A DNA stretch of 64,000 nt, taken from NCBI GenBank assembly GCA_951406725.2, contig OX597814.1, positions 172,732,001 to 172,796,000 on the forward strand, written 5' to 3'. The notes under the pieces were generated by a model. It saw only the letters and a list, made by a program, of their open reading frames with translations, did not search any database and was not told where the DNA came from. Numbering within the stretch: the stretch's first letter is position 1; every line of letters begins with the position of its first letter. The position numbers and the translations under genes were made by a program. Source of the stretch: Octopus vulgaris (lineage: Eukaryota). Of the stretch, positions 6,968 to 62,450 are shown in pieces.

Positions 6968-7039
6968 CCTGGACCAATGGTTTCAGACTTTATTTTTAGC
7001 AAATGTAATAATTTGCTAGGCGAAATCTTCTTCAGCAGG
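6968..7039 (-). ncRNA. Minimal type-I hammerhead ribozyme motif in a PLE-type tail
   Basis: Minus strand reads CCTG-CTGAAGA-agattt..tagcaaat/atttgcta..aagtct-GAAAC-cattg-GTC-CAGG: stem I CCTG/CAGG, canonical core, GUC cleavage triplet. Confidence 0.75.
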
Positions 7040-7848
7040 TACACCTTAGATTAAATATATATACACGAGGAAATCCAGTTTATGCCCCGTGCTTATACAT
7101 TCTAATTTTTTCAAATCTACCGCGCAAGTGCAGCTCTTTTTGGGCGGTAAATAAAAATGTTTAAATTTACACTGTATATATATGAATAATATATAGTCTA
7201 TTGACTAAATCTTTTACACGCTAGGCCACTGGTAATGGAAATTTCTAATATTTCAGATTACTCTTTGATAGTATCATTGAAGGGATATAATAAATATCCT
7301 GGAAACAGCAGTAAGACCTTCTATCTATAAATGTCCTAAAATCTAGACAGCCTTGGTTTATTATCTCATTACGGAAAAAATTTATATATATATATAAAAT
7401 TTATATATGTATATATATATATATATATATATATTGTTTGTTTGTTTTCCACCTGCCTTCGTCTTTTGTCTATCTTCATAAAGCTTCCCGTTATATATAT
7501 ATATATATATATATAGGACCATGTTAATCTTCTGATGAAGACGGTTCTGCAATATATTGCTGAACAGGTGCACGGTGTACCACACATCAAATATGGAAGT
7601 GATCGCAGAACACCATGAGTTGAATTATTTTGCTCAAGAAGACAACGCGCTACTCAATCCAGGAACTGAAACCTCGAGCACTTGATCGTGAGTGCAACAC
7701 ATTGTCCACCGAGTGATGCGTTCTCCTATGCATACATACAAATGTATGTGTGTGAGAAAGAGCGCGTGAGAGAAGAAGTTCAGTAAAATGAAAGAAAGAT
7801 GAGGTCTTGATGTCCGAGTTAACGAACGTGAAACAGAATGAAAGTAAA

Positions 7849-8243
7849 TCTTTATATATAAAAGTCAAGTTGTGTGTCTGTCTCCTACGATTTAGATTCC
7901 TAACTACTCCCACATTTTGCGGTGCAGTTTAACCAAAACCGGGTATCTTATAGTCGTGATTCATATCGAGCCCTTCTGGGTATTAGCGCGCGTCTACGAT
8001 GAGTCTACGATTTTAAAAATAATTTACCATAATTTTTTTCCATTTTAATGCATTTTTCGCTATTATATAAGGGAAGTAACTCTCTAAAAATGTCTGCGAT
8101 GAGTCAACGATTAAAAAAAAATTTACCATCATTTTTTTTCCATTTTTAATGCATTTTTTGCTATTTTTTGGCTATAACTCTCTAAAAATGCTTATATAGT
8201 TATTTCCCTTACAAACCCGAGCAACTCCGGGCGATACTGCTAG
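7849..8243 (+). mobile_element. Non-autonomous Helitron
   Basis: Starts TC after an A, ends CTAG before a T; subterminal hairpin cccgagcaactccggg; ends nearly identical to the 20927-21439 copy. Confidence 0.85.
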
Positions 8244-8462
8244 TAATAAATAAAATAAAAGCATGTGAGTAAGTTGGTAAACGATGTTAAGCTTGAGCTC
8301 TTAAAAATGGACGCGATAATGCTATCAAATAACACCAGTGAGTGATGCAATCTATATGGAACAGGTAGTCGTATAAAGAATAGTACAATACAACCCCAAC
8401 ACTAAAATATATGCTAATTATATATAACTCTTTCACTATTTTCTTATACTTTTATAAACATG

Positions 8463-9012
8463 TATAGTAATGTCTCGATATACGAGTTAATTTGTTCCTG
8501 GAGACCGCTCGTAAAGCAAAAATTCTTAAAGCAGAGCAATAATTTCCCATAGAAGCAATATTATATATCGTAATTCGTTGCCAGAGAATATCTTACCTAT
8601 AGGATTTATTATACTCGTATAATAAATGACAATAAAACAACAGTAGAATGTCAGAAATATTTTATATAAAGTAAAAAGAATATCAAGATGATTCATTATA
8701 TTATTATTATTATAATCCTTTCCTGAATCACTTTCACTCGCTCTAGACTCGCTTACAGCCTCTCTTGTAGACGCGATCGCCGTTCCACAAGCACTCGTAG
8801 ACGGACTTGAAGATTTATTTTTAAGAAACAAGTCTAGAGTTGTTTGCTTAGAAGAAGCTTTTATTCGCTCTCTATAATTTTTTTGGTAACATTTGCTATG
8901 GTAGCAGAAACTTTTGCACTTCGTTCAAAATTTGGATCTTCTGCTTGTAAAATAAAACTCGTAGACGCGAAGTCTCATAAAACGGATCATCGTAAAATGC
9001 TGTATTACTGTA
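8463..9012. mobile_element. Possible degenerate Tigger/pogo-like MITE
   Basis: Imperfect inverted termini TATAGTAATG / TATTACTGTA; repeated ctcgta motifs and 'acgagttaatttgttcc' resemble Tigger-type subterminal sequence. Confidence 0.45.
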
Positions 9013-59538: not shown

Positions 59539-59801
59539 TTATATATATATATATATATATATATATATATATATATATATATATGTGTGTGTGTGTCTGT
59601 ATATTTATATATGTATATATATATATATGTATATATATGTATGTATATATATGTATGTATGTGTATGTATGTATATTTATATATGTATATATATATATAT
59701 ATATATATAATCATATATATATATATATATATATATATATGTTTTCGTAATGAGATAAAAAAACAAGGCTGTGTAGATCTTAGAACATTTATAGATAGAT
59801 G

Positions 59802-59849
59802 GTCTTACAGCTGTTTCCAGGATATTCATTATATCCCTTCATCGGAGAC
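59802..59849 (-). ncRNA. Minimal hammerhead motif, CCGATGA variant
   Basis: Minus strand: GTCT-CCGATGA-agggatat aatga atatcctg-GAAAC-AGCT-GTA-AGAC. A decayed plus-strand copy of the same family lies at ~7271-7380. Confidence 0.72.
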
Positions 59850-60056
59850 GGTGTGAGAGGATGATTAAGAAATAGTTAATTTAGATAAGATATAAAATAG
59901 AGAGTGAGATTGAGGAAATAAACGAAAATAGATGTGAGATATGTAGGGATGTTGTATTTGTAGATTAGTAGATCAGTATATATCTGATATTTGTGTGTGT
60001 GTGTATATATATATATATATATATATATATATATATATATATATATATATATATAT

Positions 60057-61631
60057 TGATAAAAACGGTAAGATAACAAAAGAAAGAAAGAGACCTCAAT
60101 ATTATGTAAATAGAGGAAATTTATCTATAAAATAATATGTTACAATTACTCAATAGTCAAGATAAAACTCTGAGTTTCAGATGCCGAAGTGGAAATCCAC
60201 AACACTATCTCTTCGGTTATCTGTCCATCTGAAAAAACGCTATGAAAAAATACCATTATATAAAGGGAAATTACTGTGTTATAATTCTACTACTTATATA
60301 AAATAAAATAAGATTAAAATTTCATAGTAAAACACGTAAACATGGCTAGACCCATGTGCGTACTTATACGTCACTATGAAAACGTACACATCTTCACTTG
60401 CATTTTTCGCCAAATATATACGCATATATATTCAAACTCATACACACACACATGCGTACTGTAAAAGTTCATACATACGTCTATATATGCACAAGCACAA
60501 GAAAGACCATGGTTAAAGGTACCAGAAAAAAAACATAAGGAAGTATACAAAGCATAAAAACCACGTTCATATACGGACATGCCCTTATGCACTCATACAC
60601 ACACACGCCCATGTATGTACATACCCGCACATGTTTATATACGCATACATACACACGAGTATACGGAAAATGAATATACATATGCCCCCCCTCCCAAAAA
60701 ACCTAAAAATGGAAAAATACTAAGTAAAAAAGTCTATATATATATGCATTCTTATGTCCGCACACACGCACACATCTAAAACTGCACACTCATACATATT
60801 CACACACGTATACAAATGAATCTATATACACGTCTATATAGGCACAGGAAAATTACAGAAAAAATTATGTGTGAAAATATAAAAATATATGAAATAATAA
60901 AAGGTTTAATGAGATAAAAATACTTTTTGGGACATAATATAGAAAGCAAGTTCTATTTTTTTTCTTTAGGGGACCAAAAACGTAACAAAAATTTTGTCGC
61001 ATATGGGCATGATCCGAAAAGTTCTGTCCTTGAGTTTAGACATGTAGTAGGGTTTAAGCTGCTTTTCCAGATAAGCCATCTCTCCATGTCGCATAGACTG
61101 CACTTTTAGCTGCCGTTGGTGTAGGGCTTACATTTGGCCAAAATCTTCCAATGGATGTTATAATTGACACCTTTATCTTTTAAAGACCAAATATGATTAG
61201 ATAATTTTGTCGCGTTTCTTTTGTTCCAGTGCCTAAAATTCAAGGTGTGGTAATTGAACCTGGCCTTGAAATTACCCTCTGTAAGGCCCACGTATTTCTT
61301 CATCGAAACGGTGTCTTTAGTGGTTATAGAGTTCACGGTAGCTTCATAGATGATGGTCTCGGACATGCAAGCTCCATTTAGCGGGCACAGTTTTTTATTC
61401 CTGCATGAACAGCTGTTTTCTTGTTGTGGTTTTTGTGTGTTATGTGTGATTATATTTTTAAAATTGGTAGTTGAACTAAAACTAATTTTTAAATTGTGTT
61501 TATTGAAGAGTTTCCTATAAGTATGGTTAACTGGAAAATGTCTATCTATCAGTGTTAAGAAATATTTACCTATATTGAAGGTCACCTCGGGTGAGTAAGC
61601 GGGTGTAAACCAGATGATCTTCCTATTTCTT
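60057..61631 (-). mobile_element. 5'-truncated Naiad-like Penelope element
   Basis: ORF 61106-61642 RKIIWFTPAYS..CSCRNKKLCPLNGAC..IIYEATV..YVGLTEGNFKARF..LSNHIWSLK; continues past a premature TAA into KCSLCDME..LNSRTEL; 3' UTR ends at (AT)n. Confidence 0.85.
60160..60222 (-). ncRNA. Hammerhead motif, CCGAAGA variant
   Basis: Minus strand: AGATAA-CCGAAGA-gat..gtgga/tccac..atc-t-GAAAC-tcaga-GTT-TTATCT; 6-bp stem I. Confidence 0.7.
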
Positions 61632-62450
61632 AGTAAACTCATTTGGCATCTCAGAGTCTGTAATAAACAATTTTCTATGGACTGGAAAGTTTTGTCAAGA
61701 TCGTTTCCCTATGATAAAGAGAAATCTTCCTGATCTCTTTGTACAGACGAACAACTATTTTTTTTCCATACACACACTTGTCAATACTAATAAGAAACTT
61801 GTCAATACCCATAAGGAACGTGTATTTAGAAAAAATATACTTTCAGCTATTTCAAATAATATCTACCCCCACTACCGAATAATGTCGGCAACTTACACTT
61901 TATTCTTTTTATACCATGCATCCCATTCTTTCCTTCATCTTTTCTATCCGTCTGTCATCCACTTTCTACTTGTTTATACCACAATTACTCCCTTAATTCT
62001 CTTTCTCTCTTCCTTCTCTTCTTCTCTCGTTCTATGACGTCAAAATTCTTAACGGTATTTAAAAAATTGCTATCGTTCCTTGCCACTTTTGTTTTCCATA
62101 TATATTATATATTATAATTTCTTACATCCGTATATATGGTTTATTGATGAGCACTGTTGCTTATAATTCTCTCCCTGATGAGATTGATGCATTTTCCCAC
62201 ATTATTCTACCTCTCGGATATATTTTAATGTATCAATCGAAACGTATGTTGGTGATGTGCTGATATAAATAATTTAAATAACATCTTGAGAGTTTGTCTC
62301 CAGTTTCCATTATTCTTATGTTCTCCAAAACACGTCGCACTTCTCTTCGGAATTATCACCCATGCAAGTGTGATTACTAATTTCTTAGGCGCTTATGTGA
62401 CATTTAGCTATCCTGCTACTGTTCCTCTGGATCTTTCCTTGTAAATTAAC
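61629..62450 (+). mobile_element. Second Naiad-like PLE 3' fragment
   Basis: LSKLIWHLRVCNKQFSMDWKVLSRSFPYDKEKSS*SLCTDEQLF aligns with the 38-kb and 61-kb endonuclease C-termini; followed by a tail with a hammerhead. Confidence 0.75.
62170..62255 (+). ncRNA. Minimal type-I hammerhead motif
   Basis: tctcc-CTGATGA-GATTGATGCATT...AATGTATCAATC-GAAAC-gtat-GTT-ggtga; 12-bp stem II. Confidence 0.72.

Follow-up and report, generated by a model that had tools for sequence, protein, structure and literature searches.

A 64,000-nucleotide (nt) stretch of the Octopus vulgaris genome (GenBank assembly GCA_951406725.2, contig OX597814.1, positions 172,732,001 to 172,796,000 of the forward strand; hereafter the window) contains eleven type-I hammerhead ribozyme motifs. 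Very probably, these motifs lie at the 3' ends of Penelope-like elements (PLEs) and in short non-coding units likely to use the same enzymes, left as separate 5'-truncated insertions associated with (TA)n. The assembly comprises 2.8 Gb in 227 contigs, of which ~30 are chromosome-sized, and the window sits on the largest contig.

Hammerhead motifs of the window

All eleven sites named in the original prediction, which had been made from the window sequence, were upheld as type-I hammerheads in both position and strand (7 minus, 4 plus). At every site the elements occur in the order stem I, C(U/C)GANGA, stem II, GAAA, short stem III, UH and stem I, and stems I and II pair. The core (i.e. C3-U4-G5-A6-N7-G8-A9 with GAAA and NUH) was present in 11/11 motifs, taking the form CUGA in 6/11 and CCGA in 5/11, with GUU at the predicted cut in two. 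In a wider set of 61 motifs drawn from the window, its flanks and background tiles, CCGA replaced CUGA in 11 and UU stood at the predicted cut in nine.

A strict descriptor allowing zero mismatches recovered 3/11 sites (shuffle mean of 0.47, maximum of 2 in 60) and was dropped as too tight for aged copies. A relaxed, mismatch-tolerant descriptor was designed after the window had been inspected, and was then applied unchanged to flanks and tiles. In the window it recovered 10/11 sites as compared to 0.12 per shuffled window (200 local dinucleotide shuffles, maximum of 2); the shuffle control proposed with the original prediction thus placed motif frequency far above that of shuffled sequence. 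The motif at 16199 passed only with a lower stem-II cut-off, at which all eleven were found. The core heptamer alone was barely enriched in the window (44 versus 35 +/- 6). Rfam at its gathering score returned no matches in the window and none in 14 motif-bearing loci. At E<=5, the 150 matches listed of 243 for the window included no hammerheads and were nearly all microsatellite-driven microRNA families. When the Rfam hammerhead model was run against the genome, 263,217 rough first-look candidates were obtained, and 6 of 73 scored passed the Hammerhead_1 gathering threshold; none of 14 control genomes gave first-look candidates.

The motifs were assigned to ten families (A to J), arranged in the window as follows, with element types as predicted from sequence (RT, reverse transcriptase; ORF, open reading frame).

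6755..7156, minus: family A insertion, non-coding 457-465-nt unit; hammerhead 6968-7039, predicted cut after 6972; ends in (TA)n
7158..7380, plus: inverted family A piece (7158-7274) joined to a family H tail; TGA overlap, then (TA)n
15969..16406, plus: family B insertion, non-coding 492-535-nt unit; hammerhead 16199-16256, predicted cut after 16250
21778..22073, minus: family C, last 296 nt of a 4669-nt putative Hydra-type PLE; hammerhead 21813-21903, predicted cut after 21819
22072-22174: inverted family C piece
25586..26056, minus: family D insertion, non-coding unit of ~524-576 nt; hammerhead 25772-25855, predicted cut after 25778
37780..38977, minus: family E, 3' end of a young PLE; hammerhead 37826-37911, predicted cut after 37832; coding remnants are an endonuclease (38249-38497), an RT fragment (to 38664) and an inverted endonuclease piece (38654-38977)
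48393..49048, plus: family F insertion, non-coding 534-540-nt unit (48620-49048); hammerhead 48716-48790, predicted cut after 48785; inverted piece 48393-48618
55804..57083, minus: family G inverted arm with flanking (TA)n; hammerhead 56007-56051; GIY-YIG ORF piece 56543-57082
57078..58528, plus: family G forward arm, 3' end of a 4271-nt putative Neptune/Nematis-type PLE; hammerhead 58281-58325, predicted cut after 58320; GIY-YIG ORF to 57789; (TA)n from ~58460
59716..59965, minus: family H tail; hammerhead 59802-59849, predicted cut after 59806
60004..61630, minus: family I, putative Hydra-type PLE 3' end; hammerhead 60160-60222, predicted cut after 60166; coding remnant 61109-61630, minus, with CxCX5C linker and GIY-YIG
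61628..62320, plus: family J, 3' end of an older PLE; hammerhead 62170-62255, predicted cut after 62250; endonuclease C-terminal remnant 61629-61712, plus, joined head-to-head to family I

This arrangement modified several details of the original prediction. The motifs at 56007 and 58281 were confirmed but are two arms of one 1280-nt, 99% inverted insertion, so that the window holds 10 insertions, 9 of them found by the unchanged descriptor. The sequence near 7271, previously described as a decayed copy, lies on the plus strand and is intact up to its break: a tail of the 59802 family (H) has been cut within the core and fused to part of the 6968 family (A), so that the description as decayed does not hold. 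The statement that most motifs have no coding sequence nearby held only in part, as 5/11 (37826, 56007, 58281, 60160 and 62170) share an insertion with endonuclease or RT remnants. Ten families were likewise supported, but to call them unrelated was too strong: the 37826 and 62170 motifs align as one lineage, and the C, E, I and J proteins are related. The family B hammerhead has an extra A ahead of GAAA, a feature of the whole family.

Coding and non-coding families

Motif queries against the genome returned 647-1495 first-look candidates for nine of the ten families and 202 for family J, all of these counts being lower bounds. Among the loci scored, which include the window copies except for family G, the descriptor was passed by 15, 18, 20, 9, 20, 17, 20, 18 and 19 of 20 for families A to I, respectively, and by 1 of 8 for family J (i.e. 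the motif was retained in 157 of 188 loci). Copies of a family have common 3' ends 40-260 nt beyond the predicted cut and ragged 5' ends. Most enter (TA)n at one or two family-specific distances, and 9/10 families terminate in a (TA)n tract within the window. Opposite-strand partners are common and are joined head-to-head. Partial tandems, inverted 5'-truncated copies and a hammerhead close to the 3' end, which are traits of endonuclease-bearing (EN+) PLEs, were all seen. The families differ in age (82-100% identity to relatives), with C, E, G and I being young (96-100% among the best copies). The window copies of families C, D and J carry a stem-I mismatch.

Five families (i.e. C, E, G, I and J) are identified by their sequences as 3' ends of PLEs. 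Family G occurs in 4271-nt tandem units with an intact RT and GIY-YIG ORF of 775 amino acids (aa), and was identical across the 131-nt query in all 40 scored matches. The protein has 688 relatives at E<=1e-20, the named ones coming mostly from bivalves or bivalve-associated samples. It carries GLKF and DKG, a linker of the form CX4CxxC and, between GIY and YIG, cysteines; the element inserts in (TA)n. The DKG and CX4CxxC motifs indicate a Neptune/Nematis-type element. Of the marks of Neptune (DKG, a CX2-5CxxC linker and a CCHH endonuclease), family G shows DKG, the linker and the cysteine pair, all of which occur in Nematis as well. An upstream ORF of ~430 aa from the first Met, with no Pfam match, was observed in locus L249 (3855-5216 versus the RT ORF at 1621-3945, minus strand) and again in L250. 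The two ORFs have 91 nt in common, read in different frames, and this overlap spans seven consecutive T, which suggests a programmed -1 frameshift. A further PLE remnant in the window, an RT thumb at 9521-9745 (minus), is 49% identical to family G, and an adjoining hammerhead was not found.

Family C has a 4669-nt tandem unit with RT and endonuclease frames, the latter C-terminal, and a 3' non-coding region of ~1.6 kb; the copy read contained one stop and one frameshift. Pfam failed on the ORFs of family C and on most of those of family E, and assignment was made by motifs and pairwise alignment. By its motif marks (RWK, DKT and CxCX5C, accompanied by CxxC and CxH, with no CCHH) family C is classed as Hydra-type. 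Sequence following the predicted cut site reaches an ORF within ~200 nt in both G and C. For family E both RT and endonuclease were found; the RT is 47% identical to that of family C, and the copy read was without the CxCX5C linker. CxCX5C is the one Hydra mark of family I in the sequence examined. Families E, I and J align colinearly with remnants of RT or endonuclease, the remnants in I and J being of endonuclease.

The structure of four other families (i.e. A, B, D and F) identifies them as non-coding 457-576-nt tandem units of the type known as retrozymes lacking long terminal repeats (non-LTR retrozymes). In each, the sequence upstream of the motif is the downstream continuation of the unit itself. 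Same-strand repeats were observed at 456-465 nt in 2/20 loci for A, 492-535 nt in 9/20 for B, 524-576 nt in 10/20 for D and 534-540 nt in 3/20 for F, the B and D counts being from loci retrieved with upstream queries. Loci with two motifs one unit apart occur for A, B and F, and D shows unit continuity only. A coding extension common to copies was not found in the loci read for these families. ORF remnants upstream of B and D copies (loci L106 and L148) were rejected as neighbours, as no further copy carried them. Relatives of family H extend at least 790 nt upstream and are non-coding. An RT/GIY-YIG parent was not found for A, B, D, F or H, and the non-coding units likely ride on PLE enzymes. 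Classical short retrozyme arrays were also present at two loci (L029, 2272-4548; L256, 718-1548), with 359-nt and 353-nt tandem units, compact hammerheads and inverted copies in front of each array.

Genomic load, proposed mechanism and alternative explanations

Background density was estimated from 80 tiles of 10 kb (800 kb), hand-spread over 26 chromosomes. The unchanged descriptor detected 41 motifs in 29 insertions in these tiles, as compared to shuffle means of 0.33 and 0.2 per 400 kb (range 0-2), and 10 motifs in the flanking 200 kb (shuffle mean of 0.07), which equals the background rate. Extrapolation gave ~1.0e5 insertions (bootstrap 6.7e4-1.4e5) and ~1.4e5 motifs (8.4e4-2.2e5) genome-wide. 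At one motif per ~20 kb in the background, the window is 3-4 times denser, with nine descriptor-passing insertions against 2.3 expected (Poisson P of 7e-4; by motifs, a bootstrap chance of 0.04). Over 44,000 windows, this Poisson P leads to an expectation of ~30 windows as rich as this one. The description of the window as a dense array was therefore not sustained: it contains separate insertions of dispersed families, and lies in the upper tail of a distribution for which it is ordinary. The 61 motifs from window, flanks and tiles group into ~30 sequence families. The claim of a large population of PLE tails and non-autonomous ribozyme-bearing units was borne out, as both kinds were found and Rfam misses them.

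Stem III of the motifs is short and palindromic (4-10 nt). Its central dinucleotide was self-complementary in 21/27 distinct even-length strings (binomial P of 6e-8, for strings that are not independent), a property not demanded by the descriptor. A self-complementary centre is of no use to a monomer hairpin but fits pairing between two motifs. As stem III resembles that of dimer-dependent PLE hammerheads, lone copies are likely to cleave poorly, and those in the genome are most probably passengers of low activity. Downstream-only queries were used to locate the 5' ends of family F: 2 of 29 independent copies began <=2 nt from the cut site against ~0.4 expected (a rough estimate; not a significant excess), and the other 27 continued through it. 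Since insertions end past the cut and these F copies cross it, the template would be uncut or re-ligated there.

In the mechanism proposed, a tandem copy would be transcribed and two adjacent hammerheads would pair via the palindromic stem III, excising a unit-length RNA. The GIY-YIG endonuclease would nick a (TA)n tract, and reverse transcription, primed 40-260 nt downstream of the cut site, would run back across that site on an uncut template or a re-ligated circular RNA. Early termination would leave a ribozyme-bearing tail, and second-strand priming could yield the inverted arm. New insertions may enter (TA)n tracts that include those from earlier insertions, which would explain local clustering. 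Two mixed-family junctions were observed. At window positions 61590-61670, the 5' ends of family I (minus) and family J (plus) overlap by 2-3 nt, and a continuation of I beyond J was not found; a single insertion event appears to have drawn on two different PLE RNAs. At 7158-7380, the inverted A piece gives way to the H tail within the hammerhead core, the two overlapping at TGA. The fullest version of the model combines a hammerhead load among the densest reported in any animal (~1e5 insertions in at least 30 families, with many young Hydra-type PLEs and non-coding parasites), a circular ribozyme-released template primed downstream, and occasional head-to-head joining of two family RNAs at one break; as a whole it is tentative and on balance doubtful. 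If it is true, circular-template PLE transposition and intronic hammerhead effects become testable in one species.

Several observations weigh against the interpretation of the motifs as hammerheads of PLEs and their partner units, or against parts of it. Among the tiles, motif count was not significantly related to (TA)n content (rho 0.16, p 0.16), and the (TA)n content of the window was not above background, making the explanation of clustering weak. Stem covariation, put forward with the original prediction as a check, was present in the E/J lineage (two-sided changes at 5/11 stem-II pairs) but little was seen in the I lineage, where one pair among 17 changed on both sides (5 sequences). 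For A, B, D and F, the 20-50 copies considered of >600 each were picked by likeness to short queries, and rare coding parents could be missed. These four families exhibited no clear DNA homology to C, E, G, I, J or H (best E of 0.003), and the walk upstream through relatives of H, over at least 790 nt, did not reach a parent element.

Whether the motifs are chance matches in AT-rich repetitive DNA has to be asked, as the descriptor was loosened after the window had been seen and Rfam scores none of them. The contrast with shuffled sequence in the window, its recurrence in the tiles with the unchanged descriptor and the retention of the motif in most family loci already refute this explanation, whose probability is vanishingly small. 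A different objection accepts the hammerheads and holds that all ten families are truncated tails of autonomous PLEs, with the A, B, D and F tandems being rare, non-propagating deletion by-products. Family C did appear to be non-coding for >1.2 kb upstream until a full-length copy turned up, and family H, with which it has a pyrimidine-rich upstream tract in common, may resemble that case. Independent A, B, D and F loci nevertheless have the same unit length and junction, and their upstream sequence is the unit itself, in contrast to the coding families G and C, which lead into an ORF shortly after the cut site. An all-PLE origin is consequently considered improbable.

A selected cluster whose sense-strand ribozymes cleave a host pre-mRNA or long non-coding RNA could be read into the excess of passing insertions in the window and into the location of five motifs within 6.3 kb. 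Against this stand the ~30 comparable windows expected by chance and the background rate of the 200-kb flanks, together with the mixed strands and differing ages of the families. In 8/11 copies the open-core fold lay 5-10 kcal/mol above the ensemble (15-nt flanks; a crude measure), and the window copies of C, D and J have the stem-I mismatch noted above. Folding under full constraint yielded values near zero that varied with the register chosen, and was set aside. No host exon was detected by Pfam in 72 window ORFs. Matches were obtained for 0/72 window and 5/76 flanking ORFs (148 of 364 candidates scanned), the five comprising a transposase, an RT, one C2H2 finger and two weak matches. Selection for host cleavage is thus highly improbable, and separate insertions of PLEs and their partner units remain the preferred explanation. 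The suggestion in the original prediction that sense-strand copies could cleave pre-mRNA, were the window intronic, likewise gained no support. The strongest host-exon candidate in the vicinity is an ORF ~25 kb before the window (locus L016, 5038-5331, minus), with one C2H2 zinc-finger match barely above the Pfam cut-off.

Other features of the window include a helicase C-terminal fragment at 44996-45394 (plus) with weak Pfam matches, presumably of Helitron origin, and a 233-nt inverted repeat pair at 3308-3540 and 40674-40906 (88%). Sequences at 2260-2655 (minus) and 8526-8924 (minus) gave no Pfam match and are taken by the authors to be probable remnants of a long interspersed nuclear element and a DNA transposon.

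Comparison with known systems

Cervera and De la Pena 2014 (PMC4209133) described minimal or atypical type-I hammerheads in the pseudo-long terminal repeats (pLTRs) of metazoan PLEs, reported that their activity in vitro is low, and put forward a dimer model and a circular template. In that account, hammerheads of the present motif type cleave weakly or not at all as monomers. The octopus motifs agree with those in their stems (stem I short, stem II long, stem III short and palindromic). In both cases a genome holds many families, most motifs stand singly and derive from truncated PLEs, pairs on opposite strands occur, and tandem motifs flank an RT ORF. They differ in a stem II plus loop of up to ~80 nt, and belong to the 'small palindromic helix III' variant (4-10-nt stem III) rather than to the true minimal hammerhead ribozymes (min-HHRs), which the descriptor did not seek. 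The ~1.4e5 motifs estimated here far exceed the 2,000-9,000 given for Schistosoma, coelacanth and Xenopus (PMC4209133).

Retrozymes have been reported from coral, mussel and axolotl with units of 170-400 nt (PMC7229834), and a preprint derives retrozymes from PLEs, with units of 51-972 nt, cleavage in 1/9 dimers and no mollusc among its samples (bioRxiv 10.64898/2026.07.22.740005). Coral contains >6000 retrozyme motifs in 16 families (PMC7229834; bioRxiv 10.64898/2026.07.22.740005). Families A, B, D and F match non-LTR retrozymes as non-coding, low-GC tandem units with a type-I hammerhead and with PLEs alongside as proposed mobilisers. Their 457-576-nt units are longer than those of PMC7229834 but within the range of the preprint. 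Differences from non-LTR retrozymes are that copies mostly span <2 units and show PLE-type inversions and (TA)n ends. The density of one motif per ~20 kb exceeds that of axolotl, where 126,247 motifs occur in ~28 Gb (PMC7229834).

Among the PLE clades defined by Craig et al. 2021 (PMC8557442), Hydra is marked by RWK, DKT, CxCX5C, CxxC and CxH. Family C has all of these marks together with the C-terminal endonuclease, hammerhead and (TA)n targets, and family I has CxCX5C. The 4669-nt unit of family C differs from the 'generally <3 kb' of that clade, and the abundance and youth of Hydra-type elements here contrast with the few families found outside cnidarians (PMC8557442). Family G matches Neptune/Nematis in DKG, CX4CxxC, GIY-YIG cysteines and (TA)n, and differs in its separate ~430-aa upstream ORF. 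A curated repeat annotation of an octopus, published in 2026 (PMC13282606), counts 31 Penelope-like families as recently active, and its main text contains neither 'ribozyme' nor 'hammerhead'. No survey of cephalopod hammerheads was found in the open literature, judged by titles and the beginnings of abstracts; one paper on twister ribozymes mentions cephalopods.

The useful part of these findings is scale, i.e. an estimated 1e5 ribozyme-bearing insertions, coding and non-coding, nearly all missed by Rfam. Tens of thousands of copies are likely to be intronic, and their sense/antisense balance would reveal whether hosts select against them. Family G, young, with identical copies and with short partner units alongside, is well suited to studying the function of PLE hammerheads. 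The genome-wide load, the Hydra-type share and the mixed-family junctions are the parts that deserve specialist attention. The arrangement itself has already been published for other animals; new here are the host, the density, the abundance of Hydra-type elements and the two mixed-family head-to-head junctions.

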